NCBI GenBank assembly: GCA_963674755.2
Contig: CAXXVS010000001.1
Coordinates: 736,001 to 800,000 of the forward strand
Source: Desulfobacterales bacterium
Lineage (GTDB): Bacteria; Desulfobacterota; Desulfobacteria; Desulfobacterales; UBA5852
DNA: 64,000 bases
Direction: 5' to 3'
Below the pieces are notes generated by a model. That model was not told the DNA's origin. It saw only the letters and a program-made list of their open reading frames with translations, and searched no databases. Shown piece by piece: positions 4,424 through 58,743 of this stretch (position 1 is the stretch's first letter; every line of letters starts with the position of its first letter). The translations under genes and the position numbers were made by a program.

Positions 4424-4434
4424 CCTACTGCCCT

Positions 4435-5607
4435 TTAAAGCGCCATTGCCGTAAGGGTGGCATTGTGGGTTCCCAGTACACCGGTCGTGCGTGAAAATTC
4501 GCCGCAACAGTGCATTCCGAAGACCGGCACGCGGCCCGCAGCCGCCTGCAAACGTTGGGCTTCTTCCGGCTTGCGGTCACCGAAAATAGTGGCGCGGGCC
4601 GCACAACTGAACGCCAGCAGCAGCCCCGCCTCGGGGTGCGTTTCCAGAGCACGGGTGGCGGTGCTTTCGACAATGTCGAGCAGCATATCGGGCGTGCCGG
4701 TCATGACCTGGACAGCGCTTCCGGCCGACGGGGCGCAGCCCTGGATCCGGAGGCCTCCCTGGGCCATCTTGGCCCGCGCCACCCGGATGACGAAGGATCC
4801 GTCCGCCTGGAGCAGGCCGAAGGGGTGATTGATGGAGGTCTCCCAAAATTTATCGGCACTCAAGGCCCCCGGTGCCAGGCCGAGTTGTTCTTCATAGACG
4901 ACCGACGCCGGCCGGCCCCCGATCTCGAGGATTTCAGCGCCCCCGGCACGAGTGATCAGCAGGGGGACACCGATGGGCTGCCAGCCGTGCTGGACTTCGA
5001 CGCGCAACGGCCTTTCGCTGGCGATCCAGAGGGCCAATGCGCCATCATTTACGATATCGTTATTATGGAAGATGCTTGTTTTTATGAATTGCTGTTCGTC
5101 ACTCGCCGCTCCCCCGAACATGGGTACTTTGGGACCGGTGATCCGATAAACCCCCTGTACGATCTGTTGCAGATCCCCGAGAAGGGCGTCGGCCAGAACC
5201 AATACCCCGGCGTGCGGGCTTTCACCAACCTCAGCCCGGCAAGTCCGTGTGATATCCTGGGCGGCGCGATCCATGTCAACGCGGATATGACTGGCCGATG
5301 CCGCCGCAAAGCGGTAAGGCCCGGCGGTCATGGCCAGAACCGCGACGCCGGCCCCGAATCCCATATATGTGCCCTGCACGAGCTCGCCGGAGCTGGTGGC
5401 CCCGATCAGCAGTGTGGTGCCTGTCACCGAGCGGATAGTCGCCAGTAGTTTGGGAAGATCGTAGCGTGGGGTGCAGAAAACCATGATGAGTGCCGGTGGT
5501 TCGCCGGGCAGCCCGGCCAAGGCCGCGGAGGCCGCCGCGCGTCCGGCTTCGGCCGCATCCTGCGCATTGCTGGTGCCAATGCCTGTGCATAGGTTCATCG
5601 CTGACAT
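4435..5607 (-). CDS. FIST N/C-domain signal transduction protein
   Basis: IGATSSGE, FGGAASD, HGWQPIG, FSCAAR, GEF...HNAT motifs; directly upstream of the kinase. Confidence 0.88.
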   Translation of the reverse strand: MSAMNLCTGIGTSNAQDAAEAGRAAASAALAGLPGEPPALIMVFCTPRYDLPKLLATIRSVTGTTLLIGATSSGELVQGTYMGFGAGVAVLAMTAGPYRFAAASASHIRVDMDRAAQDITRTCRAEVGESPHAGVLVLADALLGDLQQIVQGVYRITGPKVPMFGGAASDEQQFIKTSIFHNNDIVNDGALALWIASERPLRVEVQHGWQPIGVPLLITRAGGAEILEIGGRPASVVYEEQLGLAPGALSADKFWETSINHPFGLLQADGSFVIRVARAKMAQGGLRIQGCAPSAGSAVQVMTGTPDMLLDIVESTATRALETHPEAGLLLAFSCAARATIFGDRKPEEAQRLQAAAGRVPVFGMHCCGEFSRTTGVLGTHNATLTAMAL

Positions 5608-5887
5608 GTCCTTGCTTTGGGGGAAAAATTTCCAGGACAATCCCAAGTCCCTGAGAGGCCTTTGATCTGACGACGAATGGTCAGATCGCGAGGCCGGACC
5701 GGGCCGGGCAACGCCGCGGTCCGCCCAACCCGGTCTTCAAACCTCGATCAGAGCTTATATCGTACGAAGGGTTCAATTTCTTGAGCGAATTCTATACTTG
5801 GGGAGGGGGCGAGATCGGAGTCCCTGACGGATGGTGATAGACTTGTTTGATCAAGGTTCCGACCTCGCTGTGTATCAGAACGGGTAA

Positions 5888-6265
5888 GCACCCCTCGATG
5901 TTGAAACTTACCTAAACCTTCGTCATCTGCACGTCTCACTGAAGGGCGAGCCCCAAGGCTACATCGACGATATCATCCGGTCCCGGGGATTTCAGCGGAA
6001 TGTCGTTGCCACTGTGGGGCATTTCTTGGTGGCCCCGTTCCTGCTGGCATCGACGGATGCCGTCGCTACGGAGCCGCGTCGCATTCTGGCACCTTTGGGG
6101 CGACTGCTGAATCTGAAACTTGTCGATCCACCCATCGACATCCCGCCTTTCCAGGTAACCCAAATATGGCATAGGCGTTTCGATACCGACACCGGGCACC
6201 AATGGCTGCGGGCTGCGGGATCTGATACAGGCAATCTGCAGGGGGTTAAACGAAGGGGTTCCTGA
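5888..6265 (+). pseudogene. C-terminal fragment of a LysR-type regulator substrate-binding domain
   Basis: Frame after TAA 5885-5887 reads ...RHLHVSLKGEPQGYIDD...VGHFLVAPFLLASTDAVATEPRR...QIWHRRFDTDTGHQWLR; no HTH and no proper start. Confidence 0.75.
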
Positions 6266-6463
6266 ACGGCGATGAAATACACCATTGCTTGCCAACCGGC
6301 ATCGTCATCACCCCGGGGCGTGGATCGAGGTATGCCCCGGGTATACGGAGTTTGGCGTTGATTTTCAGTGACAGACGGGTATTGGCCGGCCTAGTTGCCG
6401 ATTTTTCATCATCCGGTTCGCGCTCGGCGGCAGCTTCAAGGCCCTCGGGTTCAGAGGCGCGCC

Positions 6464-6733
6464 TCAGTCTTGCGCGTCTTTTTCCCGGCGGATGAAGTCG
6501 GCCAGGCTCCCCAGGGTCTGCAAGATGGTCCGGCCGATTTTTTCGGCGTCGATGCGGATGCCGTAGCGCATCTGCACGGTCACGATGATTTCGACGGCAT
6601 CCAGGGAGTCCAGACCCAGGGGGCCCTCCGGGCCGATCAGGATGGAATCCCGCCCGAAGTCCTCGGGCAGGGGGCCGGGAATATCACACGCTTCCACGAT
6701 CATTTCTGCCAGTTCACGCTCTAAAGCATCCAT
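6464..6733 (-). CDS. Acyl carrier protein
   Basis: 89 aa, acidic, GLDSLDAVE phosphopantetheine site. Confidence 0.9.
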   Translation of the reverse strand: MDALERELAEMIVEACDIPGPLPEDFGRDSILIGPEGPLGLDSLDAVEIIVTVQMRYGIRIDAEKIGRTILQTLGSLADFIRREKDAQD

Positions 6734-6739
6734 AGATGT

Positions 6740-8545
6740 CTATCCGAGATTCCTTTCCGCATGGGCCCGACGACGGCCCGCTGATGTCAGGGATGGTTCG
6801 GCGGCGGACAGCGCCATCCGGTTTTCAGGGTCCGGGTGGATGGCCACAGCCCAGGTGCCCGGGCCGGTGTGGACGCCGGTGGTCAGGGACAAGGGCTGCA
6901 GGATGATTTCCGCCCCGGGAAAGTGTTTGGCAATGGCCTCGGCGGCCTTGGCTTCGACCCAGTCGCGATTGTCGGTATACTCCACCAGGACGATGGGCGC
7001 GACCGCATTCGCCAGATCGGTCTTCAAGTGTTGCAGGGCAAATTGCAGCTGCTCCGTGCGGTTTTTGACGCTGCCGATTTTTTCGGCGCCCGTGGACAGG
7101 GGACTGATGACCGGTTTGACATTGAAGAAGTCCCCCACCACGGCGCTGGGCCGGGAGAGCCGGCCCCCGGCGGCCAGGTATTTCAGACGGTCGATAAAGA
7201 TGTATTCCCGGCAAACGGTCAGGGAGCGTTCCGCCAGGGCCGCCACGCGTTCCATGTCCGCCCCGCCGGCGGCCAGCCGCACGGCGGCCAGCACCATGAC
7301 CGCCAACCGGCCCGAGGCCGCCCCCGTATCCACGATGCGCAACCGGTTGCCGGGGTCGTGGCGGGCCTGCCAGGCCGCGGCCGCCCCGTAGTTGCCGGTA
7401 AAGGCCGATCCGACGCAGAGATAAAGGGTTTTCGAATACGTTTCCAGCAGGCGCTGGTAGTGCTGGCGGCGTTCGAAATCCGAGGCCTGGGAAGTGGACA
7501 CCCGCTCCCCGGCGCGCATGCGGCGGTAAATCTCCTGGGGCATCACCCGGGTTTCGGGCAGGGAGTCGTCACCGGTGTTGATATAGCTTTCCAGCAGGGT
7601 GATGCCGTAGCGTTGCTGGTCTTCACGGGTCAGGGAGGCGGCGCCGTCCGTGGCGATGTGCACCCGGGCCGGGCGGGGGCGCTGCCGAAAGGCCCGGACC
7701 TGCCGGGACAGATCGTCTTCCGACCAGCTCATCAGGGCGCCCGTGGCCTCTATGGTACGGCGGGCGGTTTCCCGGTCGGCCGTATGGAAATGGAGTTTGA
7801 TCACATCGTCCCGGGTAAGATGCACGACGCTCTCGGCCTGGGCAACCAGATCCTGAATGACGGCATCCATGCCCGCGTTCGCCGCCAGCACGGTATCGAT
7901 GCAATACCCTTGATTATCGGCCTCCTGAAAGTCGGCGCTGATATTAAGGCTGCCCGGGAAACGCCGGGTGGGCGGTTGGCAGTCGTCAAGCCGGTCGATC
8001 AGGGCGTAGAAAAACCCTTCGAAAAAAAGATACATCCCCAAGGCGCCGGCATCCACGACACCGGCGGCCTTCAGGCGGGGCAGCGCCTCCGGGCTGTTCT
8101 GCACCGTGGCCTGCAGGGCTTCGAGCAGGGCCTCGACCGTGTCGACTGCGGCAACGGGGCTACGCTGCGCCAACTCGGCGGCCAGGGCATCGAACAGGGA
8201 CAGCATGGTGCCTTCCCGGGGGGTCTGCACGGCCCGATAGGCGGCCCGGGCGCCCCGGCGGGCGGCGTCGTCTACGGGAATGAACGGTACTTTGATGAAT
8301 TCGCAGAAAAACTGGGTGGCGATATTCCCGGAGTTGCCCCGGGCGGCCTGGAGGAGCTTTACCGCCCGGCGGTCGATAGCATCGTTCCCGGAGCGGGCCT
8401 GCAAGGGCATCAGGCTGACCTGCAGGTTGCGCCCCGTGTCGCCGTCCGCCACCGGGAAGACGTTGATGGCGTCCAGCAGATCCGACCAGGCGGCCAGGCG
8501 GTCGAAGCCCGCCTGCAGGGCGTGGTTAAACAGCGTGGGCGTCAT
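6740..8545 (-). CDS. DAK2-DegV fusion (fatty acid kinase FakA/FakB-like)
   Basis: INVFPVADGDTGRNL, ARGNSG, VVDAGA in the N-terminus; DegV motifs STSQ, YLAAGGRL, HTGPG. Confidence 0.88.
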   Translation of the reverse strand: MTPTLFNHALQAGFDRLAAWSDLLDAINVFPVADGDTGRNLQVSLMPLQARSGNDAIDRRAVKLLQAARGNSGNIATQFFCEFIKVPFIPVDDAARRGARAAYRAVQTPREGTMLSLFDALAAELAQRSPVAAVDTVEALLEALQATVQNSPEALPRLKAAGVVDAGALGMYLFFEGFFYALIDRLDDCQPPTRRFPGSLNISADFQEADNQGYCIDTVLAANAGMDAVIQDLVAQAESVVHLTRDDVIKLHFHTADRETARRTIEATGALMSWSEDDLSRQVRAFRQRPRPARVHIATDGAASLTREDQQRYGITLLESYINTGDDSLPETRVMPQEIYRRMRAGERVSTSQASDFERRQHYQRLLETYSKTLYLCVGSAFTGNYGAAAAWQARHDPGNRLRIVDTGAASGRLAVMVLAAVRLAAGGADMERVAALAERSLTVCREYIFIDRLKYLAAGGRLSRPSAVVGDFFNVKPVISPLSTGAEKIGSVKNRTEQLQFALQHLKTDLANAVAPIVLVEYTDNRDWVEAKAAEAIAKHFPGAEIILQPLSLTTGVHTGPGTWAVAIHPDPENRMALSAAEPSLTSAGRRRAHAERNLG

Positions 8546-38151: not shown

Positions 38152-38187
38152 GTCAGCAGCGAATTTTCAGAGAGGAGGAGGGAGTTG

Positions 38188-39279
38188 ATGCAAGGGAAAA
38201 ACATTTTTGCGACACGCGGGGGTATCATCGGCGTGGGCGCCCTGATCGGTGTTCTGGCGCCTGTGCTGCAGAAACTCGGCAATCCCGGTAATATGGGGAT
38301 CTGCGTGGCCTGCTTCGAGCGGGACATTGCCGGTGCCGTGGGGCTCCACCGGGCGGCGGTGGTGCAGTACGTGCGCCCCGAGATCATCGGTTTCGTGCTC
38401 GGTGCGATGGCGGCCGCCTACCTTTTCAAAGAATTCCGGCCCCGGGTGGGCTCGGCCCCCATCGTGCGGTTTGTTCTGGGGGCCTTTGCCATGATCGGTG
38501 CCCTGGTTTTTCTGGGCTGCCCCTGGCGGGCCGTGCTGCGGCTGGCCGGTGGTGACGGCAATGCCATTGCAGGGATCTTGGGCCTGACCTTCGGCATCTG
38601 GATCGGTACCCTGTTTCTCAAAAAGGGCTACAACCTGGGGCGCACCCAGGCGACGCACGCCACGGTGGGGTGGATGCTGCCGCTGTTGATGGTGGGGCTG
38701 CTCGCCCTGATGGTTATGTTCCCCCAAGTCGAGGGGCAGGACAAAAGCGGGATTTTGTTCTATAGCCTCAAGGGGCCCGGCGCCATGCATGCCCCGCTGG
38801 TCGTCTCGCTGGTCGTGGGGCTGGGCATCGGTTTTCTGGCCCAGCGCAGCCGGTTCTGCACCATGGGCGCCATCCGGGACACGGTCCTCTTCGGTCAGAC
38901 CCATCTGCTGAGCGGTTTCATCAGTCTGGCCGTGGTGGCCTTTGTGACCAATCTTGTGCTCGGTCAATTCAACCCCGGATTTGCCGGGGAACCCGTGGCC
39001 CATACCATGCAGGTCTGGAATTTCGCAGGCATGGCCCTGGCCGGGTTGGCCTTCGCCCTGGCCGGCGGCTGTCCCGGGCGCCAGCTCTTTCTCTCCGGTG
39101 AGGGGGACGGTGATGCGGCCGTGTTTGTCCTGGGGATGATCGTCGGGGCGGGCTTTGCCCACAACTTCGGTCTGGCCAGTTCGCCCAAAGGGGTCGGTCC
39201 CCACGGCATTGCCGCGGTGGCCGTGGGGTTTGCGGTCTGTCTGTTCATCGGGTTCACCATGCGCCGCAAAGCGGTTTGA
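38188..39279 (+). CDS. yedE: YedE family putative selenium transporter
   Basis: GNPGNMGICVACFERDIAG, LGCPWR, RSRFCTMG, GGCPGRQL. Confidence 0.9.
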   Translation: MQGKNIFATRGGIIGVGALIGVLAPVLQKLGNPGNMGICVACFERDIAGAVGLHRAAVVQYVRPEIIGFVLGAMAAAYLFKEFRPRVGSAPIVRFVLGAFAMIGALVFLGCPWRAVLRLAGGDGNAIAGILGLTFGIWIGTLFLKKGYNLGRTQATHATVGWMLPLLMVGLLALMVMFPQVEGQDKSGILFYSLKGPGAMHAPLVVSLVVGLGIGFLAQRSRFCTMGAIRDTVLFGQTHLLSGFISLAVVAFVTNLVLGQFNPGFAGEPVAHTMQVWNFAGMALAGLAFALAGGCPGRQLFLSGEGDGDAAVFVLGMIVGAGFAHNFGLASSPKGVGPHGIAAVAVGFAVCLFIGFTMRRKAV

Positions 39280-39511: not shown

Positions 39512-40057
39512 GTGTTCGGTTTCCGGAAAAAGAAGAACAAGGCCAGCCCGGACCATTCCCAGGCCGCGGTGAGTCGCGGCCTGCTGGTTTTCGAGAATAC
39601 GAGCGAGGTCATCCAGGCCGAAAACCTTCTCAAAAAGGCGGGCTGGTCGGTCAGTGTCATGGGCCCGCCCCCGGAGATTCGCACGGGCTGCGATCTGGTG
39701 ATCGTCTTTCCCCTCATGGAGGAGCTGCATATCCTGCGGGAGCTGCGCCGGAAAGCCCTTGAACCCCTGCAGGTGGTGCCGGTTTCGGCCCCCCTGCTGG
39801 CGCCGGTGGACTTGTTTCAAACCAAGGATTTCGGGGACTATCTGATGGTGCGTGCGGCCAACATGAAAATCACGATCGCCAAGGGCAGCCGGCAGATCGT
39901 CAACATCTCCGGGGGCGGCTGCCCGGACGTGCCTTATCTGGCCCAGGCCATGATCGGCCAATCCCTGGCGGCGGCGCCGCGCCCCCGGGACTTGGGGCAT
40001 ACCCTCTGCGGGTATGCCCTGGAGTTGGCCTACCAGGAATTGCTGCGGCAATGTTAG
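39512..40057 (+). CDS. DUF3343-like putative Se/S carrier protein
   Basis: F.NTSEVI.AE..L, PP.IRTGC; GGGCPDVP, TLCGY. Confidence 0.78.
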   Translation: MFGFRKKKNKASPDHSQAAVSRGLLVFENTSEVIQAENLLKKAGWSVSVMGPPPEIRTGCDLVIVFPLMEELHILRELRRKALEPLQVVPVSAPLLAPVDLFQTKDFGDYLMVRAANMKITIAKGSRQIVNISGGGCPDVPYLAQAMIGQSLAAAPRPRDLGHTLCGYALELAYQELLRQC

Positions 40058-40941
40058 GCATCGTCGGCACGGTTCCGGATCTGCAATTCCCGCTGGTCCA
40101 TGGCAAGGTCCGCTGGCAGGGCCGTCAGATCCGGATCGAGGGTCACACCATCCCGGTGAACCGGGGCACGCCGGCGCTTATCGCCGCTTCCTTAAGGGCC
40201 TGCGAATGTGCCGGCGGTCCGGAAGTCTACGCCTTCCTGGTGGGCGACACCGGTGTCGGCGAGGGCAGCCGCCGGTTGTATGATTTCCTGGCCAGGCATC
40301 TTCCCGAATTCGATTTACAGGTCTTGACCTTTCACTATCTGCAGCCGGATGTGGACTGGCACGGGCGGGTGCTGCCGGCCGTGCAGACCATGGCCCGGCG
40401 GCCGATCCTGATTGCCGATGCCGGCTTCATGTATGCCGCCAAAATGAGCGGCCAGGCCAGGCACTACGATTTCTTTACGCCGGATGTGGGCGAACTGGCC
40501 TTTCTGGCCGATGACCAGGCGCCCCATCCTTTTTACACCCGGGGTTTTATTCTGCACCAGGAGCACCAAGTGCCCGATCTTATCCGGCAGGCCTACGGAC
40601 ACGGCAATGCCGCCGCCTGCCTGGTGGTCAAAGGATCGACGGACTATATCGTCCATGATGGGAGCATCGCGGCCACCGTGGAGGCGCCCTCCTGCGACGC
40701 CATGGAAGCCATCGGCGGTACGGGCGACACCTTGACCGGCCTGTTGAGCGCTTTTTGCGGGGCGGGGTTCGATCGGATCGAGGCCGCGGTCCTGGCGGCC
40801 CGGGCCAATCGCTGGACCGGCGCTCTGGCCGACCCGACGCCCGCCACTCAGGTGCCGGAACTGATTGACAAGATTCCCGAGGCTGTGTCACATCTGCTGG
40901 ATCACAAGGATTACAGGAGCACACCGCATGGCGGAGCATGA
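40051..40941 (+). CDS. Ribokinase-fold (NAD(P)HX dehydratase/carbohydrate kinase-like) protein
   Basis: IADAG, TPD.GELAFL, VKG..D, GGTGDTLTG. Confidence 0.75.
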   Translation: MLGIVGTVPDLQFPLVHGKVRWQGRQIRIEGHTIPVNRGTPALIAASLRACECAGGPEVYAFLVGDTGVGEGSRRLYDFLARHLPEFDLQVLTFHYLQPDVDWHGRVLPAVQTMARRPILIADAGFMYAAKMSGQARHYDFFTPDVGELAFLADDQAPHPFYTRGFILHQEHQVPDLIRQAYGHGNAAACLVVKGSTDYIVHDGSIAATVEAPSCDAMEAIGGTGDTLTGLLSAFCGAGFDRIEAAVLAARANRWTGALADPTPATQVPELIDKIPEAVSHLLDHKDYRSTPHGGA

Positions 40942-41977
40942 ACCCATTCGCCTGACCCAAAGCGTGGCCGGGGCCGGCTGAGCGTCCAAACTGGCGCCAG
41001 GGGACCTGGACCGAGCACTTTGTGGCCTGACGTTTCCCACCGACGGGAACGTCCTGGTGGGGCTGGACCGGGCCGACGACGCCGGGGTCTACCAAGTCTC
41101 CGAAGAGCTGGCCCTTATCCAGACCGTGGACTTCTTCACGCCCATTGTGGATGATCCTTATATGTTCGGGCAGATCGCCGCGGCCAACGCCCTCAGCGAT
41201 GTCTACGCCATGGGGGGCGTGCCCAAAACCGCCATGAACCTGGTGGCCTTCCCGGCCAAAGACATGGATTTGAGTGTGCTGCGCGGGATCATCCAGGGCG
41301 GAATCGACAAGCTGGTGGAGGCCGAGGTCGTCCTCTTGGGCGGGCACAGCGTCGAGGACAAGGAGTTGAAGTACGGCTTGTCGGTGACGGGTTTTGTGCA
41401 CCCGGACCGGGTGCTCACCAAGCAGAATCTGCAGCCGGGCGACCGGCTGGTGCTCACCAAACCGCTGGGCACGGGCATCGTCAATACCGCGATCAAAGCG
41501 GGCATGGCCTCGCCGGCCCTCACGGAAACGGTGACCCGCCTGATGGCGGCCTTGAATCGCGAGGCCGCCCGTATTATGGCGCGTTTCGCGGTGAACGCCT
41601 GCACCGATGTGACCGGTTTCGGCCTGATGGGCCACCTGGCGGAAATGGTGGCCGGCTCGGGCTGGAGTGTGCGGATCCTGGCCGCACAAGTTCCGTTCAT
41701 CGAAGGGGCCCTGACCTTTGCGGAAATGGGCCTGATTCCGGCGGGTGCCTACCGGAACCGCGAGTTCCGGGCGGCCATGATCGCCGTCGCGGACGACGTA
41801 CCGCGGGGGCGGCAGGATTTTCTCTTCGACCCCCAGACCTCGGGCGGGCTGCTGATCAGCGTGAAGGGGAACCAGGCCGACACCCTTGTGAACGCCTTGC
41901 AGGCGGCCGGAATGGCCGAAGCCGCTCTCATCGGCGAGGTGCTCGACGCGCCGGACGAGAAGATCTATGTTGTCTAG
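40928..41977 (+). CDS. selD: Selenide, water dikinase SelD; selenoprotein with Sec at codon 18 (TGA 40979-40981)
   Basis: MAEHEPIRLTQSVAGAG-U-ASKLAPGDL in frame with DDAGVY, QTVDFFTP, ANALSDVYAMG, TDVTGFGL, DPQTSGGLL; AGGAG RBS. Confidence 0.95.
40982..41015 (+). promoter_or_regulatory. Putative bacterial SECIS element of selD
   Basis: CCAGG-GGA-CCTGG hairpin starting about 15 nt after the UGA, with a G-rich loop. Confidence 0.6.
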
Positions 41978-42023: not shown

Positions 42024-42377
42024 CCACCGCCGATGGACCGGGTCCCCGAATGGGGATAAATCAACTTGATCCCGCCCTGCCATCCCGCGCGGGAAACCAT
42101 CGATAGAAAATACCAATCGGGCGCTATTCGGCCATTTCTATTATCGATTTGACTTATCGCCTGTTTCCATCAAAGATACCGGCCACTATTTCCTCGAAGG
42201 GCCTTTCATGACGTACGTTTTCGGATTCACATGAGCGCCTCAGCCGCAAGCCAACCGTGTTTGTTCGGCAGGAATGTGAACTGAAATCGGCCAACCGCCG
42301 ACATCCTCTTCGTTGCATGTCATTCATGCGTCTTGGGCGCTGCGTCGCTTAAAGACCTATTTTTTCAGGAGGTGGGT

Positions 42378-43655
42378 ATGAGTGAAGACTATCGCGCCAT
42401 GTGGGAACAATTGGGGCTTGATCTCGAGGCCCATGACGGCCTGCTGGGGGTTTTAAACCAGGCCTATCAGGATATTTACCTGGCCCAGGCCGACCGGCCG
42501 GAAGGTATGGGCTATTTCGACTTTGTCATGAGCGAGGTGCATGGGCTGCGCATCAAGGAACTGCTGGATGAAAAGGCCGCGGGCCGCAAGATTATCGGCT
42601 CCTATTGTGTCTTCGTGCCCGAAGAGATCGTCCTGGCGGCCAATGCCACCCTGGTGGGCCTTTGTTCGGGAGCCGATTTCGCCATGGAAGAAGTGGAAAA
42701 GCTCCTGCCGCGCAATACCTGCGCTTTGATCAAGTCCTCCTTCGGTTTCAAACTGGGCAAGGTGTGTCCCTACCTGGAAAGCGCCGACATGATCGTGGGT
42801 GAGAACACCTGCGACGGAAAGAAAAAGGCCTATGAGTCCCTGGGACCGCTGGTTAACCAACTCTATGTAATGGATCTGCCCCAAGTGAAGTCCGATCAGG
42901 GGAAGGCCCTGCTGCGGGCCGAATACGACCGCTTCAAGACCGCGGTTGAACAATTGACCGGGGTGACGGTCACGGCCGAATCCCTGCGGGCCGGCATCGA
43001 GGCGGTCAATGCCAAACGGGCCGCCATGCACCGTCTGGCCGTCCTGCGCCAGGCCGATCCGGCGCCCATTTCCGGGCTGGATGCCCTCCTGGCCAACCAG
43101 GTCTTCTTCTATGACAATCCGGCCCGCTTCACCGCCTCGGTGAACAAGATCTGCGACGAACTGGAGCAGCGCATTGCGAACAAGGTGGGGGCTTTCAACG
43201 CCGGGACGCCGCGTGTGCTTGTCGCCGGCTGCCCCCAGGCGGTGCCCAACTGGAAGCTGCCCTGGATCATCGAAACCTCCGGGGCGGTGATCGTGGGTGA
43301 GGAATCCTGTGTGGGCGAACGGGGCACCCGCAACTTCACCAAGACGACGGGCGACACCGTCGAGGAAATGATGGCGGCCATCGTGGACCGCTATTTTGAG
43401 GTGGACTGCGCCATCTTCACCCCCAATCCCCAGCGCCTGACCCACATCGAGAATATGGTGGCCGACTACCGGGCCGACGGCGTGATTCATTACGGCCTCC
43501 AGTTCTGCCAGCCCTACCTCATGGAGTCGATGCCGGTGGAAAAGGCCTTGGAAGACAAGAATATTCCCTGCTTGAGAATCGAAACCGACTACAGCATGGA
43601 AGATGTGGGCCAGTTGAAGACCCGTATAGAAGCCTTTATCGAGCAGCTGCGCTAA
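42378..43655 (+). CDS. Double-cubane cluster-containing anaerobic reductase (HgdB/2-hydroxyacyl-CoA dehydratase family, DCCP-like)
   Basis: YCVFVPEE, GLCSG, NTCALIKS, CPY, TCDGKKK, GCP, EESC, DCAIF, QFC; RIETDYS; AGGAGG RBS. Confidence 0.85.
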   Translation: MSEDYRAMWEQLGLDLEAHDGLLGVLNQAYQDIYLAQADRPEGMGYFDFVMSEVHGLRIKELLDEKAAGRKIIGSYCVFVPEEIVLAANATLVGLCSGADFAMEEVEKLLPRNTCALIKSSFGFKLGKVCPYLESADMIVGENTCDGKKKAYESLGPLVNQLYVMDLPQVKSDQGKALLRAEYDRFKTAVEQLTGVTVTAESLRAGIEAVNAKRAAMHRLAVLRQADPAPISGLDALLANQVFFYDNPARFTASVNKICDELEQRIANKVGAFNAGTPRVLVAGCPQAVPNWKLPWIIETSGAVIVGEESCVGERGTRNFTKTTGDTVEEMMAAIVDRYFEVDCAIFTPNPQRLTHIENMVADYRADGVIHYGLQFCQPYLMESMPVEKALEDKNIPCLRIETDYSMEDVGQLKTRIEAFIEQLR

Positions 43656-43864
43656 CAGGCCGTGGATAAACGGCGCCTCAGACCAGAATGCGGCATTGTA
43701 CCGCGTTGCGGGAGTTCTTATCGGATCATTTGGGCTAGGGTGAGTCCCGTCCTCGCGAAACCGCCGCAGCAACCCTGATGGTTGCTGCGTATTTCGCATC
43801 GGGTGGCCGTCCTTTCACCCCGTTGGTTATACGCGATCTGTTAATGCGGCAGGGAAGGATTAAA

Positions 43865-44620
43865 ATGCGGTTTGCAGGTATCGATATCGGTTCGCGCGCC
43901 ATTAAACTGGCGGTGGTGGATGAAGCCGGCAAGGTACTGAAAAGGTCCCGCAGCGATACCGGGTTCGATCCCATGGCGGCGGCCGGGAAGTTGGTCGACG
44001 GAGTGGCTTTCGACCGCATCCTGGCGACGGGCTACGGCCGCAGCCTGTTCGAGATCGCCAGGGAAGCCCCCACGGTGACCGAGATCAAGGCCCATGCCAC
44101 AGGCGCCCGGGCCTGTTTCCCGGAAGCCCGGGCCGTGCTGGACATCGGCGGGCAGGACAGCAAGGCCATCGCCCTGTTCGAGAACGGGAAGGTAAAGAAA
44201 TTCGAGATGAACGACCGCTGTGCGGCCGGCACCGGCAAATTCCTCGAAATCATGGCCCGCACCCTTGGGTTCGGCATCGCGGATTTCGGGCGGGAGGCCC
44301 TGGCGGCCGACGAGGAGCTCAACATCTCCAGCATGTGCACGGTCTTTGCCGAATCCGAGGTCACTTCCCTGATCGCCAAGGGACAGAACCGGCGGGCCAT
44401 CGCCCGGGGCCTCCATGCCAGTGTCATCCGCCGGGCCGCGGGCATGATCAACCGGGTATCGTCAGAGGGCGCTATCGTGTTCACCGGCGGGGTGGCCCAA
44501 AATCCCTGCATGCGAAAGCTGCTGGCGGACAAATTGCACCGCAGGATCCTTGCACCGGACGACCCGCAGATGGTAGGGGCGTTAGGTGCGGCTTTGCTGG
44601 CCGCGGAAGCGGCTCCCTGA
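43865..44620 (+). CDS. ATP-dependent [4Fe-4S] activase (HgdC/DCCP-R type)
   Basis: GIDIGS, ATGYGR, DIGGQDSK, MNDRCAAGTG, SSMCTVFAESE, GGVA. Confidence 0.92.
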   Translation: MRFAGIDIGSRAIKLAVVDEAGKVLKRSRSDTGFDPMAAAGKLVDGVAFDRILATGYGRSLFEIAREAPTVTEIKAHATGARACFPEARAVLDIGGQDSKAIALFENGKVKKFEMNDRCAAGTGKFLEIMARTLGFGIADFGREALAADEELNISSMCTVFAESEVTSLIAKGQNRRAIARGLHASVIRRAAGMINRVSSEGAIVFTGGVAQNPCMRKLLADKLHRRILAPDDPQMVGALGAALLAAEAAP

Positions 44621-47576: not shown

Positions 47577-48713
47577 TTAGCCCAGCTGGGCCCGCAATAC
47601 CTGAAAAAGGCGCTCGACGTCCGCATCGGTATTGTAGAGGTGGGGAGCGATCCGGATCGAGTCGCCCCGGGCACTGGCGAAGACATTGGCTTCGGCCAGC
47701 CGGGCGGGGAGATCGGAGGGGAACCCACGGGGGTGCCGCAGTCCGATCAGGTGGGGGGCCCGGTAGGCGGCCGGGGCGACCTCCAGCCCCAGGCCGGCGG
47801 CGCGCTCCGCGATGGCATCGGTGCGGGCCCTCAGGGTTTCGGCGATGGCCACCACCCCCCAGGAGAGAATCTGGCGTAGCGCTTCGCCGGCGATGGGGGC
47901 CAGGTTGAAATTGCTGGCCTCGCCGGCATCGAAGCGTTTGGCCCCGTCCTGGTAGGCTTCCCGGTAGTCCACCAGGCGCGCAAAATCTTCGGCGCCTGCG
48001 CGATTCAACCAGTTCTCCTCCAAAGGATGGCCGTCCTGCCAGCGGGGGGCGATGTAGCAGAACCCGTAGCTGTAAGGGCCCAGGAGCCATTTGTGGGCGG
48101 TGGTGACGAGGAAGTCCGGCTGAATTTGGGACACTGAAAAGGGCATGGCGCCCAGGGACTGGGTGCCGTCCACCACCAGGGCGCTCTGGCAGGCACGGCA
48201 GTGTCGGCCCACGGCGACCAGATCGATGAGGGTGCCGTCCGTCCAGTGACAGTGGGGCAGGGCGGCGACGGCCGTCCGGGGTGTAATGGCGGTCAGCACA
48301 GCCGAAGTCCAGTTGCCGTCTGCCGGCCGCGGCACGCGCACGATGTCAGCCCCGCAGTCCCGCGCCAGGCGGTGCCAGGAATAGATATTGGAAGGGAACT
48401 GGTCCTGGAGGACAACGATGGTCTGGCCCGCTTCGACCGGAAGATTGCGGGCGGCCAACGCGATGCCGTAGGATACCGAGGGGATGATGGCCACATCCTC
48501 CGGTGAAGCTTCCACCAGGGCTGCAAAAAGCCTCCGGTTGGCATTGAGATCGCTGAAGAAGAAGTCGGTGGTCAAGGCCCAGGGCGCTGACTTGCGGGTC
48601 AGCGCGTGTTGTCCGATCGCGGCGGCCGATTTGAGCAGCGGCGAGGTATAGGCGCAATTGAAATAAGCCACGTTCTCCGGTATGGTAAATAATTCACGTT
48701 GGCAGGGAATCAT
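47577..48713 (-). CDS. PLP-dependent aminotransferase class V family protein
   Basis: YFNCAY, VDGTQSLG, AHKWLLGP, IRIAPHLYN; GGAGG RBS. Confidence 0.9.
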   Translation of the reverse strand: MIPCQRELFTIPENVAYFNCAYTSPLLKSAAAIGQHALTRKSAPWALTTDFFFSDLNANRRLFAALVEASPEDVAIIPSVSYGIALAARNLPVEAGQTIVVLQDQFPSNIYSWHRLARDCGADIVRVPRPADGNWTSAVLTAITPRTAVAALPHCHWTDGTLIDLVAVGRHCRACQSALVVDGTQSLGAMPFSVSQIQPDFLVTTAHKWLLGPYSYGFCYIAPRWQDGHPLEENWLNRAGAEDFARLVDYREAYQDGAKRFDAGEASNFNLAPIAGEALRQILSWGVVAIAETLRARTDAIAERAAGLGLEVAPAAYRAPHLIGLRHPRGFPSDLPARLAEANVFASARGDSIRIAPHLYNTDADVERLFQVLRAQLG

Positions 48714-51857: not shown

Positions 51858-53333
51858 TCAGGATGATGTTTTGGCAGAGGTTACACGCCCCTTCCGTTTC
51901 CCCTGGCGCCAAACGGTGGCGTGGTCGTGATCCCGGAGACGAACGCCGTCCTCCTCCAGACGTCTTCGCAAGCGATCGGCCGTGCGCCAATCGCCGGCCT
52001 GCCGGGCCGACTGGCGACGGGCCACCAGGCGTTCGACAACCGGACGCGGGAGTTCAGGAGCGCAGGTGCTGGGGGGCAGACGGCGATAGCCCTCCAGCGG
52101 CGTCTGCAAGAGCCCGAGCACATGCCGCGTCAAGTAGATGAAATCGGTCGCCGTATCCGCCACCGTGCGCCGGAAGGTGTTGCAGCGCATCGGTCCCGCC
52201 GCATCCAGGGCCCGGTTGATTTCCCGCATGGTTTCGAAGACCACCGCCAGGCCACCGGGCACATTGTCGTCCAGGGCCAGTTGGCCGCTGAAGCGCTGCC
52301 AGAGACGGCTTCCACAGGGCACCGACGGATCGCATGCCCCCATCCAGGCCTGCAAGCGCCCCGCCAGGGTATAAAAACGGTCCAACTGACGTGCGGCTTG
52401 CCCCAGCGCGTTTGCGCTGAAGGGGAGATCGCGTCGATAATGGCGTGACAGGAGAAAAAGACGCACCGCCTCGGGATGATAAGCGGCCAGAAGATCTTCC
52501 AGCGGCGGGGCATTGCCTTTGGACTTGGCCATTTTGACGTGTCCCACCGTAACCATGCCGTGATGGAGCCAGATATCGGCCGGCGGTTGGCCGAAGGCGG
52601 CGCGGGATTGAAGGATTTCATTGGCGTGGTGGGGGAATCGCAGATCGCAGCCCCCGCCGTGGATGTCGAAGGGGATGTCCAGCAGGGTGTGGCTCATGGC
52701 CGTGCACTCGATGTGCCAGCCGGGGCGGCCCGGTCCCCAGGGGCTCTCCCAGAAGGGCTCCCCGTTCTGGCGCCCCTTCCAGAGGGCGAAGTCGTGCGGG
52801 TGACGTTTGTCCACGTCGACCGGCGGGCCGCTATTCACCGGACGGGCATCTGCTTCCGGTTGCCAGGCGATCGGGCCGGAGTCTCCAAGGCTGTGGGACG
52901 AAAAATAGATTGACCCGCCACGGCGGTAGGCATGGCCGCGCTGCAAGATGCGGGCGATGACCGCCTGGCAGGCGCCGACATAATCGGTTGCCCGGGGGGC
53001 GGCATGGGGCGGCCGTACGTTCAGGGCGGCCATGGCCGTGTCGTATTCGCGGCCATAGCGCTCGGCCACGCGGCGGTAGTCCTGGTCGCCCTCCCGGGCG
53101 CGCCGCAGAATCTTGTCGTCGATATCGGTGATATTGCGCACCAGGGTGACATCGTATCCGACGGCTTCCCAAAAGCGGCGGAAGACGTCGAAGATTACCG
53201 CCGAACGGGCGTGACCGAGGTGGGGTGCCGCATAGACCGTCGGTCCGCAGACATAGATCCCCAGATGCCGGGCTTTGCGGGGCCGCAGGTCCTCCATTTC
53301 CCGGGAGAAGGAATTATAGAACCGCAGGTTCAC
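51858..53333 (-). CDS. cysS: Cysteinyl-tRNA synthetase paralogue (CysRS*-type, divergent)
   Basis: YVCGPTVY, HLGH, NITDIDDKI, DFALWK, GRPGWHIEC, DIHGGG.DL.FPHH.NE, KMAKS; overlaps the selB stop. Confidence 0.92.
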   Translation of the reverse strand: MNLRFYNSFSREMEDLRPRKARHLGIYVCGPTVYAAPHLGHARSAVIFDVFRRFWEAVGYDVTLVRNITDIDDKILRRAREGDQDYRRVAERYGREYDTAMAALNVRPPHAAPRATDYVGACQAVIARILQRGHAYRRGGSIYFSSHSLGDSGPIAWQPEADARPVNSGPPVDVDKRHPHDFALWKGRQNGEPFWESPWGPGRPGWHIECTAMSHTLLDIPFDIHGGGCDLRFPHHANEILQSRAAFGQPPADIWLHHGMVTVGHVKMAKSKGNAPPLEDLLAAYHPEAVRLFLLSRHYRRDLPFSANALGQAARQLDRFYTLAGRLQAWMGACDPSVPCGSRLWQRFSGQLALDDNVPGGLAVVFETMREINRALDAAGPMRCNTFRRTVADTATDFIYLTRHVLGLLQTPLEGYRRLPPSTCAPELPRPVVERLVARRQSARQAGDWRTADRLRRRLEEDGVRLRDHDHATVWRQGKRKGRVTSAKTSS

Positions 53334-55254
53334 CGTTGGTCTTCTCCTTCAATACCCGTTCGTTGCCCTGACGGATGGTGAAGCCGACCTGGTCCAGATA
53401 TTCAAACACGGGCACCGCGCCCATACGGCCATATCCCAGCAGCCCTTTGCTATCGGCAAGACGAAGACCGCCCTGGTGGCGGATTTGATGCCGGATGCGC
53501 GCCTTGATCGTCTCCAGGGCGGCCGGCGTGAGAAACCGTCCGTTGTTCAGACGAATCATTTTCTGCTGGCGCACAAGATAGGAAAGGACCTTTTGCAGCT
53601 CGGCTTTGGCGATCGCCACGGTACACGCCCTGAGAAGGGTCGCTTCGCTGAACGGACAGAGGCCGATGCCCTCGGCGGCCGCCAGAGCGTGATCCAGGAG
53701 GTGGGTCCGGCGGGCGTCGGACACGGCCAGGGATGCAGTCAGACGGTAGTGGCCGTCGCTTTTTTCGAGCTTGCCGCTTCGCACCAGATCGGCAAGGAGG
53801 CTGCCCAGCAGCACGGGATCCATTCCGGGGGGCAGGCCGTCTTTGATTTCAGCGGCTGCCAGCCCCCGATGGAAGGGGTCTTGTTCCAGGGCGGAGGCGA
53901 CGTTGGCCAGGATGACGTCGCGATGACGGTCATAGTGATCCTTCCGGATGGCACCGTGGCCCTTAACGTAGACGAGATCGCCGCGATGGACCCGGGCATT
54001 GACTTCAGCCTCCAGAGGACCGCCGGGCAGGCCGGTGGCGTCGGCCAGATCCTGGGCGGACAGAAGACGATGCGCGTTTTTTTGCAAAAGAACATCGGCA
54101 CAGGCCGGGATATCACGCGCTTCCAGCGCCTCCAGAAAGGGAACGACGGCGTCGTGTTTGGCGGGCCGGTATTTCTGCCGTGTCCGTTCCAGCAGAATCC
54201 CGCCGCCCAAAACCTGGTTGCGGTTCAGGAGGGCGATGACGAAGGCCTCGCCTAAAGCAGCGTTCAACGGTTCGGCAAGACGAAACTGTACCAGACCCTT
54301 TTGACCTGCCCGCAGGTGCACCCGGCCCATCAGATGGGTCGTGGCCTGGTGAACGGCCGTGCCCACATAGAGTTTGACCCTTTGACCGTGCTTCAAAACG
54401 CCCTGGGGGGCGGATCGCATGCGCAGGGCGGCATTGTAGAGACGGCTGCCGGGGTGCGCGCCCGGAGAGGCCAGCAGCATGCCCCGGGCGATGGCGGCGA
54501 GCGGAATTTTGGGCAGGTTGATGCCCACCCGCTGGCCGCCTACCGCCGAGGTGACCCGGCCGCCGTGGCATTCCATGGAACGGACCCTGGCCGGGATCCC
54601 GGCGGGCAGGATTTCGAGTTCCTGGCCTTCATGAACGCCGCCCCCGGCCACGGTGCCGCTGACCACGGTACCGATCCCGGCCAGCTGCCGCACCTGATCG
54701 ATCCAGAGCCGGAAGGGGCCCGGATGAGAATCCCGGGGCAGGCGTGCGATTTCTTCCCTGAGGGCGTGGGTGATGATGTCGATGTCCGGAGGCTGGCGGT
54801 TCGAAAATGACAGCATCGGTTTGCCCGCGAGAAACGTCCCCTCAAGCAGGTCTTCCAGCTCAAGCTTGGCAATTTCGACGGTTTCCGGGTCCACTAGGTC
54901 GGTTTTGCTGAGGACGACCAGCCCGCCCCGGGTTCCGAAATACTGGAGAATGTCCAGGTGCTCCCGGGTCTGGGGCATGACCCCGTCATCGGCGGCGACC
55001 ACCAGCAGGGCCAGATCCACCCTGTGCAAGCCGCGGATGGCGTTTTTCAGAAAATCCACATGGCCCGGGACATCAACCAGGGCCAGGCCCACATCGGCGA
55101 AAACCGACCAGGCCGCGATGCCGGCTTCGATGGACAGGCCGCGGCGTTTCTCCTCCGGATTGCGGTCCGTATCGATGCCGGTAAGGTGTTTGACGAGGGT
55201 CGTTTTGCCGTGATCCACATGTCCGGCCACACCGATCGTAAGGTAGTGTCTCAT
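53314..55254 (-). CDS. selB: SelB-type elongation factor paralogue (SelB*)
   Basis: GHVDHGKT, DVPGH, DGVMPQTREH, SKTD, EF-Tu-like domains II/III, C-terminal winged helices ending EYLDQVGFT.R.GNERVL. Confidence 0.92.
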   Translation of the reverse strand: MRHYLTIGVAGHVDHGKTTLVKHLTGIDTDRNPEEKRRGLSIEAGIAAWSVFADVGLALVDVPGHVDFLKNAIRGLHRVDLALLVVAADDGVMPQTREHLDILQYFGTRGGLVVLSKTDLVDPETVEIAKLELEDLLEGTFLAGKPMLSFSNRQPPDIDIITHALREEIARLPRDSHPGPFRLWIDQVRQLAGIGTVVSGTVAGGGVHEGQELEILPAGIPARVRSMECHGGRVTSAVGGQRVGINLPKIPLAAIARGMLLASPGAHPGSRLYNAALRMRSAPQGVLKHGQRVKLYVGTAVHQATTHLMGRVHLRAGQKGLVQFRLAEPLNAALGEAFVIALLNRNQVLGGGILLERTRQKYRPAKHDAVVPFLEALEARDIPACADVLLQKNAHRLLSAQDLADATGLPGGPLEAEVNARVHRGDLVYVKGHGAIRKDHYDRHRDVILANVASALEQDPFHRGLAAAEIKDGLPPGMDPVLLGSLLADLVRSGKLEKSDGHYRLTASLAVSDARRTHLLDHALAAAEGIGLCPFSEATLLRACTVAIAKAELQKVLSYLVRQQKMIRLNNGRFLTPAALETIKARIRHQIRHQGGLRLADSKGLLGYGRMGAVPVFEYLDQVGFTIRQGNERVLKEKTNGEPAVL

Positions 55255-55273
55255 GGGTTCCGTGGCATCGGGA

Positions 55274-55365
55274 TGGAAGGGGCAAGGGGAATCGAACCTC
55301 CTCCTCGTTGTTCAGACGAGGCCGACGGTTTTGAAGACCGCGGGGTGCCCAGCACCATTGCCCCT
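55274..55365 (-). tRNA. selC: Non-canonical selC*-type tRNA, anticodon UCA, predicted Cys-accepting (8/4 fold)
   Basis: Acceptor AGGGGCAA/UUGCCCCU (8 bp, A1:U72), U73, encoded CCA; D arm GGUGC-UGG-GCACC; anticodon arm GCGGU-CUUCAAA-ACCGU; long variable arm CCUCGU/ACGAGG; T stem GG(A)GG/CCCC with bulged A, loop UUCGAUU. Confidence 0.88.
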
Positions 55366-55621
55366 TCAAGGGAAGATAAAAAGATGAGGACCGGCAGGGG
55401 GTGAATCTATACCCATATGCGGTGAAGCATCTTCCATACCGATCCGCACGCGCTACTCACACGGGAAGCGTAGGTGTGGGGCGCTCAGGTGAAGCCGGTA
55501 TGGAGATACATAAGATGCTCCGACGAGTGCAGACTATTTAGTATTAATCTAAACCCTCCACCTATGGTGGAGGCCCCGGAGAGGTTTTGCCGATCCAGGG
55601 TGGCTTTACATCAATGGGAGC

Positions 55622-57351: not shown

Positions 57352-58743
57352 ATGGTGAAGACATATGACGTGGTGGTCGTGGGAACCGGCTCGGGCGGAC
57401 AGACGGCCGCCTACACGCTGATGGAATACGGGCTGTCCGTGGCCGTGGTCGAGGACAGCCCGACCCCGGGCGGCATCTGCGCCCTGGCCGGCTGCCAGGC
57501 CAAGAAATGGTATTATGAAGCCACCGAACTCATGGCCCGGGCCCGGCACCTGGAAGGCAAGGGGCTGGTCCGCCCGCCGGAAATGGACTGGGCGGCCATC
57601 CGCAGGGAGAAACGCGCCTTCACCGACCCGATCCCCGCTGCCACCCGCAAGGGTTTGGAGGGGGCGGGCATCGATTTTATCACCGGCACGGCCGCTTTCA
57701 GCGGGCCGGATACCCTCGCCGTAAACGGGGATTCGGTGCAGGGGAAGTACTTCGTCCTGGCCACCGGGGCCCATCCCATGCCGCTGCCCTTCCCGGGCGC
57801 CGGGCACCTGATCACCAGCAGCGATTTCCTGGAGCTCGAGCGCCTGCCACCCCGTCTGGTGTTTGTGGGCGGGGGCTTTATCTCCTTCGAGTTTGCCCAT
57901 TTTGCGGCGCGCCTGGGCCCGGCGGAACGGGTCGTGATCCTGGAAGCGGCGCCGCGTCCCCTGGGGCCCTTCGATGCCGAGATGGTGGCGCACCTAGTGG
58001 CCGCCTCCCGGGCCGAGGGGATCGAAATCCACACCGATGTGCAGCTGACCGAGGTGGAAAAAAACGGCGACGGATTTGTGGTGCGGACCGAAGGCGGTGA
58101 CGTTTTCGAGGCCGACCTGGTGGTGCACGGGGCCGGCCGGGTGCCCTCAATCGAGCGTTTGCATCTGGAAAAGGCCCAGGTGGATTACAGCAAGCGCGGC
58201 ATTTGCGTAGACAGCGCAATGCGAACCGCCAACCCTCGGGTTTTCGCCGTGGGCGACTGTGCGGCAACCATCCAGTTGGCGCGGGTGGCGGACTACGAAG
58301 CCTATGTGGCCGTCAAGAATATTCTAGCGGAAGTGGAAGGTGGGGCCGGCGCTAAAGTGGATTACCGGAACGTGCCGACCGTTCTGTTTAGCTACCCCCA
58401 GTATGCCATGGTGGGGGCCACCGAAGCGACCCTGCAAGATGACGGCATCCGCTATTATAAGAACGCGGACTTCAATCTGGGGTGGCCGACCTATCGGCGG
58501 GTGGGGATGACACAGGCCGCCTACAAAGTGATGGTGGACGACGACAACCGTATTTTGGGCGCCCACATCATCTCCGACAACGCTTCCGGCCTGATCAATA
58601 GTTTCAAACAGGCCATGCACGATCATCGCAGCGTGGAAGATCTCTACTGGGAGCATGTGATGACACCCTATCCCTCGCGGGAGAGCGACATCATCTACAT
58701 GTTGAAGCCATTTTTCGAGGACGATCTGCTGGCCGGTCTATGA
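57352..58743 (+). CDS. Pyridine nucleotide-disulfide oxidoreductase (glutathione reductase-like)
   Basis: VGTGSGG, GGICALAGC redox pair, GGGFISFE, AVGD, YPS C-terminal motif. Confidence 0.9.
   Translation: MVKTYDVVVVGTGSGGQTAAYTLMEYGLSVAVVEDSPTPGGICALAGCQAKKWYYEATELMARARHLEGKGLVRPPEMDWAAIRREKRAFTDPIPAATRKGLEGAGIDFITGTAAFSGPDTLAVNGDSVQGKYFVLATGAHPMPLPFPGAGHLITSSDFLELERLPPRLVFVGGGFISFEFAHFAARLGPAERVVILEAAPRPLGPFDAEMVAHLVAASRAEGIEIHTDVQLTEVEKNGDGFVVRTEGGDVFEADLVVHGAGRVPSIERLHLEKAQVDYSKRGICVDSAMRTANPRVFAVGDCAATIQLARVADYEAYVAVKNILAEVEGGAGAKVDYRNVPTVLFSYPQYAMVGATEATLQDDGIRYYKNADFNLGWPTYRRVGMTQAAYKVMVDDDNRILGAHIISDNASGLINSFKQAMHDHRSVEDLYWEHVMTPYPSRESDIIYMLKPFFEDDLLAGL

Follow-up and report, generated by a model that had tools for sequence, protein, structure and literature searches.

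How is UGA read in a genome that carries, side by side, a tRNA with a UCA anticodon, a paralogue of the selenocysteine (Sec) elongation factor SelB and a paralogue of cysteinyl-tRNA synthetase (CysRS)? The question is raised by a locus on a 64,000-nucleotide stretch of DNA from a Desulfobacterales bacterium (assembly GCA_963674755.2, contig CAXXVS010000001.1, positions 736,001 to 800,000), referred to here as the window, in whose numbering coordinates are given unless another contig is named. The favoured answer, to which we assign a probability of roughly 0.8 on the strength of sequence comparisons, is that the three genes, selC*, selB* and cysS*, form an accessory translation module that reads Sec-type UGA codons as cysteine (Cys). 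The selC*-selB*-cysS* system has been in print since 2017, and this locus is not a discovery of the system. The three genes are as follows.

55274-55365, minus strand: selC*, a tRNA-Cys(UCA) of 92 nt with encoded CCA (ARAGORN, Rfam, covariation among relatives)
53314-55254, minus strand: selB*, a SelB paralogue of 646 aa with EF-Tu-like and winged-helix domains (Pfam, NCBIfam)
51858-53333, minus strand: cysS*, a full-length CysRS paralogue of 491 aa with a GTG start (Pfam, NCBIfam)

The selB* start lies 19 nt beyond the 3' end of the tRNA, and selB* and cysS* overlap by 20 nt. As the trio, with the identical 20-nt overlap, is present in two congeners, the arrangement is not due to chance. The original prediction, made from this stretch of DNA alone, had placed a UCA-anticodon tRNA, a SelB paralogue and an overlapping CysRS paralogue at exactly these positions, and the minus strand does carry them there; its assignment of the locus to the tRNAReC-type selC*/selB*/cysS* module is likewise supported, and the module stands beside a complete canonical Sec system. 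What it overlooked is that CysRS* retains its anticodon-binding domain and that a UGA-bearing leader lies upstream of the tRNA. The name tRNAReC reportedly goes back to Vargas-Rodriguez et al. in 2018, for a tRNA-Cys that resembles tRNA-Sec and recodes as Cys a UGA linked to a Sec insertion sequence (SECIS).

ARAGORN detects a single tRNA in the 64-kb window, with the anticodon tca, and labels it tRNA-SeC; against the Rfam tRNA-Sec model it scores 57.8 bits (gathering score 47). Read from the sequence, its acceptor stem is AGGGGCAA/UUGCCCCU, with 8 bp and A1:U72 as the first pair, and the discriminator is U73. The T stem, GG(A)GG/CCCC, comprises four G:C pairs and one bulged A. The 7-bp anticodon stem contains a bulge, and the variable arm has 6 bp, 4 of which show compensatory changes, and a 7-nt loop. 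The 8-bp acceptor stem with A1:U72, the U73, the 4-bp T stem with its bulged A and the long variable arm had all been described at the outset, and correctly so. The sequence fits an 8/4 form with the bulged A and an acceptor/T branch of 12 bp, that is, U73 and 8/4 rather than the G73 and 13-bp (8/5) branch of canonical tRNA-Sec; it combines the U73, UCA anticodon, long variable arm and long anticodon stem that mark tRNAReC. It is identical at 90 of 92 positions to the tRNA of Desulfococcus biacutus (PMC5389517, supplementary sheet 3), both differences being in the variable loop, and its exact sequence matches no row of the tRNA table on that sheet.

The proposed cloverleaf was examined in 10 selC* tRNAs of relatives (8 distinct) and in 500 shuffles, using five measures. 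In the observed set, 98.3% of cells pair and 7 pairs show changes on both sides. On four of the measures none of the 500 shuffles reaches the observed value, on the fifth (further pair types) 21 do, and shifting the pairing partners lowers pairing to 38-58%. A second set, of 25 selC* tRNAs, adds the eighth acceptor pair, which changes from A:U to G:C in two genomes (G301 and G248), and covariation at acceptor pairs 5 and 6.

We searched the rest of the assembly (6.7 Mb in 3 contigs, 97% complete) for the canonical machinery. A second tRNA-Sec, a canonical selC of the 8/5 form with G73, outscores selC* in Rfam at 75.6 bits; a second, full-length canonical selB scores 346 bits; selA is present once; and there are two Sec-type selD genes with one in-frame TGA each. 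Thus selC* coexists with a complete set of selA, selB, selC and selD. The original prediction had asked whether canonical selA, selB, selC and a housekeeping cysS exist elsewhere in the genome: all were found, two selD genes came with them, and the case on which it would have been abandoned, a genome with no other selC or selB, does not apply here. The gene for formate dehydrogenase alpha (fdhA) occurs twice with an in-frame TGA and once without. Of 1470 open frames with 500 or more codons, 701 end in TGA, more than in either other stop, so UGA is not reassigned genome-wide. An ordinary tRNA-Cys(GCA), of 75 nt with G1:C72 and U73, is among the 59 tRNAs of the genome. The ARAGORN list of these 59 also contains one 'tRNA-???' with a four-base anticodon (ccaa), which could be an artefact or a frameshift-type tRNA.

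The protein encoded by cysS* scores 403.6 with NCBIfam (cut-off 340) and contains the DALR_2 and CysS_C anticodon-binding domains of Pfam. Its residues 3-477 align with solved CysRS structures, reaching position 460 of 461 in the E. coli enzyme, and a conserved basic tail extends beyond the retained anticodon-binding domain. The zinc ligands, HIGH and KMSKS are all intact. Connective peptide 1 (CP1) is altered: the motif (D/E)M(E/S)AGARV of ordinary Desulfobacterales CysRS, which served as our reference in place of the published residues PTVS/MSGA, is gone and the zone is hypervariable. Within the full-length CysRS* clade the mean pairwise identity is 0.44 in the CP1 zone, 0.72 in the catalytic core and 0.62 in the anticodon-binding domain, as compared with 0.70, 0.70 and 0.51, respectively, in ordinary CysRS. 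Since the anticodon-binding domain is better conserved than in ordinary CysRS, it is under selection and not decaying. CysRS* is defined as an enzyme without this domain in Mukai et al. 2017 (PMC5389517) and, in the passages that define it, in reviews of 2020 (PMC7609411) and 2022 (PMC9437257), whereas the enzyme of the window possesses it. A full-length CysRS* lineage that keeps the domain and carries a basic tail would therefore seem to be an addition to what we found in print.

A search with the CysRS* protein over 5.8 billion proteins gave 120 listed matches, among which three groups can be distinguished. The first is a tight clade of about 25 clusters with at least 59% identity, mostly of 485-510 aa (a few shorter members are probably partial). 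After a gap come proteins of 410-441 aa with 43-48% identity that end just before the anticodon-binding domain, and the third group consists of ordinary Desulfobacterales CysRS with 40-44% identity. In the alignment, the full-length clade has the complete C-terminal domain followed by the conserved basic tail, and the CP1 motif is lost in both the full-length and the short CysRS* groups. A quick maximum-likelihood tree was built from 50 rows hand-picked from the 120 listed matches, partial sequences excluded. Its support consists of Shimodaira-Hasegawa-like approximate likelihood-ratio values only, and long-branch attraction is possible; with that reservation, the full-length clade receives 100, the clade without the anticodon-binding domain 99, and the branch that joins the two with a long-branched full-length protein, P0036, 95. 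Another long-branched full-length protein, P0033, joins at the next node outward (87), and both P0036 and P0033 are without the CP1 motif.

A CysRS gene adjoins SelB* in 7 of the 30 SelB* loci of the order. In two of them (the window and the congener G010) it is full length, and in five it is without the anticodon-binding domain, the match to CysRS* ending near residue 381-410; all seven loci carry A1:U72 tRNAs. Among 301 sampled genomes of the order, the full-length type was found at E <= 1e-130 only in the genome of the window (G000) and in G010. Another genome, G227, encodes a 46%-identical full-length CysRS and gave no SelB* match. CysRS genes with 40-44% identity from eight other families were also considered and rejected as CysRS*, as no UCA tRNA was found in the 9-kb regions around them.

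The housekeeping CysRS of this genome has 468 aa (L009:1486-2892, G000:C3) and is 33-35% identical to CysRS*. Its named relatives carry the labels 'Desulfobacterales bacterium', at 77-83% identity, and 'Desulfatitalea sp.', at 74-76%. Throughout the genus the housekeeping enzyme is of a different type from the CysRS of about 480 aa found in most other families of the order, and a figure legend of Mukai et al. 2017 sets apart the CysRS of Desulfonema/Desulfococcus and Desulfatitalea (PMC5389517). A replaced housekeeping CysRS might be one reason why these lineages need a dedicated CysRS*. A third CysRS-like gene (L011:595-2871; G000:C3, about 2618156-2620432) encodes a protein of 758 aa, in which a cysteine-synthase-like, pyridoxal phosphate-dependent N-terminal half is joined to a CysRS with an anticodon-binding domain. 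Most of the 41 relatives have frames of similar length (about 760-800 aa) that are 31-38% identical to CysRS*, so that this cysteine-synthase/CysRS fusion looks conserved across the order.

In SelB*, Pfam recognizes GTP_EFTU, domain 2, the SelB beta-barrel and SelB winged helices 2 and 3, and the NCBIfam selB score is 279.5 (cut-off 242.25). The protein is 29% identical to the canonical SelB of the same genome and 35-47% identical to the SelB* proteins encoded after selC* in other families of the order; selC* is directly upstream in 25 of the 30 SelB* loci. With ARAGORN, Rfam and the NCBIfam equivalog models all returning the ordinary names (tRNA-Sec, selB, cysS) above their cut-offs, the mislabelling by pipelines that had been foreseen does take place. 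The two kinds of SelB differ in the pocket for the amino acid. Sec-pocket residues were taken from the structure paper on A. aeolicus SelB (PMC4605307), and their positions were placed through alignments to solved SelB chains. The SelB* family set (n = 120) is the query with its 119 listed top matches, unfiltered, a few of which may be canonical; the canonical set (n = 21) is the genome's own SelB with 20 distant canonical loci.

E. coli R181 position: Q in 112/120 SelB*, R in 21/21 canonical SelB
A. aeolicus F45 position: I or V in 118/120 SelB*, F or Y in 21/21 canonical SelB
E. coli D180 position: D in 120/120 SelB*, D in 18/21 canonical SelB
E. coli R236 position: R in 120/120 SelB*, R in 18/21 canonical SelB

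The signature at the R181 and F45 positions divides the SelB* family from canonical SelB. A pocket with one positive charge fewer would suit a neutral thiol rather than a selenolate, and this apparent rebuilding of the amino-acid pocket again goes beyond what we found in print.

Upstream of selC*, in the genome of the window as in G004 and G010, the alignment contains a leader block that is much better conserved than its flanks. Its elements, and those of a second leader in the window, are listed here.

55407-55511, minus strand: leader mini-ORF (open reading frame) 1, MYLHTGFT followed by an in-frame UGA, conserved upstream of selC*
55451-55470, minus strand: SECIS-like hairpin P2 of leader 1 (RNAalifold)
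55433-55504, minus strand: possible long-range helix P1, 55495-55504 with 55433-55442, 10 contiguous pairs in this genome
42208-42279, plus strand: leader mini-ORF 2, MTYVFGFT followed by UGA, with a hairpin at 42250-42269 (genome-wide regular expression)

Leader 1 has a GGAG Shine-Dalgarno sequence within 55512-55527, an ATG at 55511-55509, eight sense codons and UGA as codon 9 (55487-55485); read-through would add 25 further codons up to a TAG at 55409-55407, which lies 41 nt before the tRNA. The P2 hairpin begins 17 nt downstream of the U of the UGA, with its apical loop at about +25 to +29. RNAalifold predicts it from 24 leaders, with four pairs of which three show compensatory changes, and the loop position was about constant in the leaders inspected by eye. 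The distance from the UGA is similar to that of the hairpin in the genome's own selD. The P1 helix would pair codons 3-6 of the mini-ORF with a segment some 45 nt downstream of the UGA and so enclose both the UGA and P2. Its support is moderate: in 29 leaders the mean longest run is 9.6 pairs, against 7.0 in shuffles, with p <= 0.01 in 8 of the 29, and G010 and G004 do not show it. Shortly before leader 1, at 55555-55573 on the minus strand, the window has a perfect 8-bp hairpin with a U-rich tail, and the aligned position in G004 and G010 is a TTGAC-type promoter-like sequence; the operon may hence use another promoter or upstream read-through.

A mini-ORF ending in GFT-UGA is present at 18 of the 25 selC*-selB* loci of the order, with UGA as codon 9 in 15 of them and a longer N-terminus in 3; none was found at the other 7 loci. 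The Gly and Phe codons vary at their third positions while the residues stay constant. Searched with the regular expression (F/T/R)-G-F-T-UGA, the whole genome yields two matches, leader 1 and leader 2. As about four matches are expected from base composition alone, the weight rests not on this count but on the start codon, the Shine-Dalgarno sequence and the hairpin, which both matches possess. Leader 2, with its mini-ORF up to the UGA at 42208-42234, is situated between selD and an HGD-D family gene and ends 95 nt before the latter. In the 41 relatives the exact leader pattern gives 15 matches against none in a reversed control; with UGA at codon 10 there are 32 against 4, mostly noise, a few of these 10-codon variants being genuine. 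Away from selC*, leaders precede HdrD-like genes with Fer4 and CCG domains (6 cases), HGD-D genes (3, the window included), selD (1, in G019) and a porin gene (1), and one further HdrD-like Fer4+CCG gene lies behind a GCA-type selC*.

No Rfam family matches leader 1 or leader 2, the words 'SECIS' and 'leader' do not occur in the main text of Mukai et al. 2017 (PMC5389517), and our full-text literature searches found no description of a UGA leader before selC*. The nearest parallel that we found in print is selenium-dependent transcription through a UGA/SECIS inside fdhF of Treponema primitia (PMC3892789). The leader may act as a sensor of UGA-decoding capacity that sets the expression of the operon, and it may thereby sense selenium supply. 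It also appears to tie the operon to other selenium-linked genes, which is a further probable addition to the published picture.

Some of these genes belong to a selenium gene neighbourhood on the plus strand of the window, about 10 kb from the trio. They are listed below with two flanking genes.

38185-39279, plus strand: YedE-like transporter (Pfam Sulf_transp, 4.5e-13)
39512-40057, plus strand: Se/S carrier protein (Pfam Se_S_carrier, 4.6e-21)
40928-41977, plus strand: selD, with in-frame UGA as codon 18 (40979-40981) and a hairpin after the UGA
42375-43655, plus strand: HGD-D family gene, behind leader 2 (Pfam PF06050, 1.4e-117)
43778-44620, plus strand: BcrAD/BadFG-type ATPase gene, behind leader 2 (Pfam PF01869, 5.3e-50)
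47577-48713, minus strand: class-V aminotransferase of the cysteine desulfurase or selenocysteine lyase type
57352-58743, plus strand: pyridine-nucleotide disulfide oxidoreductase

The selD gene of the window is a likely target of UGA recoding. Close homologues, as judged by eye, of the window's HGD-D gene directly follow selB* in G034 and G039 (L165, L166). That the HGD-D gene encodes a 'Cys backup' enzyme was considered and dropped: tblastn of the genome found no Sec-containing paralogue of it. The flanking oxidoreductase and class-V aminotransferase may belong to the same selenium/sulfur neighbourhood.

Taken together, these elements suggest the following scheme. CysRS* would charge selC* with Cys, using U73 and A1:U72 through its remodelled CP1 and, in this lineage, its retained anticodon-binding domain as well. 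SelB*, whose pocket is short of one basic residue, would take the Cys-tRNA, bind SECIS hairpins through its winged helices and place Cys at the UGA of selenoprotein mRNAs, candidates for which are the two selD and the two UGA-containing fdhA genes; everywhere else UGA would remain a normal stop. At the leader, a ribosome that halts at the UGA or moves past it would signal how much Sec-tRNA, or Cys-tRNA bound to SelB*, is available. The genes switched in this way would be selC*-selB*-cysS* and the HGD-D/activase pair beside selD, joined in relatives by HdrD-like genes and by selD. We infer every step of this scheme for the present organism, down to what SelB* and the retained domain do and how the leader works. 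The combined proposal that the leader is a Sec-decoding sensor of a small regulon, and that the full-length CysRS* represents an earlier stage of the domain-less enzyme in which the retained domain still reads the anticodon, now UCA, is put forward tentatively, at a little short of even odds.

Several observations weigh against a working Cys-inserting module. Of 13 genomes examined within the genus, 3 carry the trio, and one of these, G004 (L045, G004:C12:238000-248000, 3655-7248), has a tRNA identical to the selC* of the window together with a selB* that is frame-shifted, with a scrambled N-terminus and a destroyed P-loop, a cysS* split in three frames, and a leader with a weakened outer helix. 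This state reflects either decay of the module or assembly errors; the patchy presence and the broken copies together indicate that the module can be dispensed with and undergoes decay. In many relatives an A1:U72 selC* and SelB* occur without an adjoining cysS*, which implies that the dedicated synthetase is not always needed. With its anticodon-binding domain kept, the enzyme deviates from the published CysRS*, and it may charge ordinary tRNA-Cys too. As the T stem of selC* is invariant across the relatives, covariation cannot separate an 8/4 from a 7/5 fold, and the choice between them leans on the published probing of the near-identical D. biacutus tRNA (PMC5389517). Finally, according to the supplement of the same paper, that tRNA is used by EF-Tu in E. 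coli, which makes its restriction to SelB* an assumption. In another relative, G015 (L167, G015:C15:33000-41000, 1420-3740), an A1:U72 selC* is on its own, no selB* being found in the region retrieved; selD and a gene that on inspection resembles a sulfur-carrier fusion come immediately after it.

How far do these points favour another explanation? The broken copies in G004, the patchiness in the genus and the selC*, selB* and cysS* pseudogenes reported in a supplementary legend (PMC5389517) would all be compatible with an inactive or decaying remnant. For this genome we regard that as unlikely, because both ORFs of the window are intact with all catalytic motifs kept, the anticodon-binding domain is, as described above, better conserved in the clade than it is in ordinary CysRS, and the tRNA differs from that of G010 at 2 of 92 positions although the proteins are 62-64% identical. 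It is very unlikely that the CysRS paralogue mainly serves ordinary tRNA-Cys, for example as a stress-proof duplicate, so that its link to selB* would be positional only. Its end-to-end alignment with solved structures, anticodon-binding domain included, is what such an enzyme would show, but the 20-nt overlap with selB* is kept in G010, its CP1 has lost the motif for reading the first base pair, the paralogue was found only together with A1:U72 selC* tRNAs, and the genus has its own conserved housekeeping CysRS. We give hardly any credence to a second genuine Sec system, in which the tRNA would be serylated, converted by SelA and delivered as Sec-tRNA by SelB*. The Sec names that ARAGORN, Rfam and NCBIfam assign above their cut-offs speak for it; against it stand U73 instead of G73, an acceptor/T branch of 12 instead of 13 bp, the translational coupling of a CysRS gene to selB*, the loss of one basic residue from the SelB* pocket and the behaviour of a near-identical tRNA as tRNA-Cys in published tests (PMC5389517).

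A narrower purpose of Cys insertion deserves more attention, namely that the module bootstraps the Sec pathway through a Cys form of SelD, which would restart selenophosphate synthesis once selenium returns. Translation of both selD genes depends on UGA decoding, one of them is about 10 kb from the operon, which itself belongs to the selenium gene neighbourhood, selC* (in G015) or the leader (in G019) can stand right before selD, and the published reporter assay used a selD UGA codon (PMC5389517). However, with its full set of winged-helix domains SelB* should bind any compatible SECIS, nothing confines the module to selD, and two fdhA genes carry UGA as well. We therefore consider this restriction possible but rather doubtful, and retain the broader reading, insertion of Cys at Sec-type UGA codons in general.

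On that broader reading, the locus is a natural case of one codon to which parallel machineries give two meanings, and the trio would be a ready-made orthogonal set of tRNA, synthetase and elongation factor for genetic-code engineering. The full-length CysRS* suggests that an enzyme can do this task without having lost the anticodon-binding domain, and it is the form in which recognition of the UCA anticodon could be studied. The pocket signature of SelB* offers a simple annotation rule that would tell Cys-delivering from Sec-delivering factors, which currently share the name selB. A sensory role of the UGA leader, if real, would account for the way in which cells choose when to replace Sec by Cys, a question that the published work left open.

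Among known systems, the closest is the one described by Mukai et al. 2017 (Nucleic Acids Res 45:2776, PMC5389517), who report selC* tRNA-Cys, with selB* downstream of it in Syntrophobacterales and Desulfobacterales and cysS* overlapping selB* in a subgroup of Desulfobacterales. In that study the D. biacutus tRNA was cysteinylated, in an A1:U72-dependent manner, by a CysRS engineered to resemble CysRS*, whose CP1 has PTVS in place of MSGA, and it suppressed a selD UGA in E. coli as Cys (PMC5389517). That the system is a backup under selenium starvation, as the original prediction also supposed, is a published hypothesis. With the locus of D. biacutus and Desulfonema limicola, as presented in print, the window shares the gene order, the selB*/cysS* overlap, the altered CP1, the complete canonical selABCD alongside, and a tRNA with A1:U72, U73, UCA and a sequence that fits the 8/4 form with bulged A. 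It differs in that its CysRS*, at 491 aa, keeps the anticodon-binding domain and has the extra basic tail.

With the canonical Sec machinery the module has in common the UCA anticodon, the long acceptor stem and variable arm, a SelB-type winged-helix factor and a SECIS-dependent logic. The differences concern the discriminator (U73, not G73), the acceptor/T branch (12, not 13 bp), the route of charging, which for selC* would be direct charging by CysRS instead of SerRS (seryl-tRNA synthetase) and SelA, and the Q of SelB* at the position of E. coli R181. For the leader, a relevant precedent is the 5' leader of E. coli selAB, in which Thanbichler and Bock reportedly described a SECIS-like element in 2002. 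This leader and attenuators of the trp type share with the sensor proposed for leader 1 the principle that decoding capacity governs expression through a SECIS-type hairpin or a short translated leader ahead of genes for the translation machinery. Unlike them, the mini-ORF of the window carries an in-frame UGA followed by a hairpin and precedes a tRNA gene, and in relatives the same leader precedes HdrD-like, HGD-D and selD genes.

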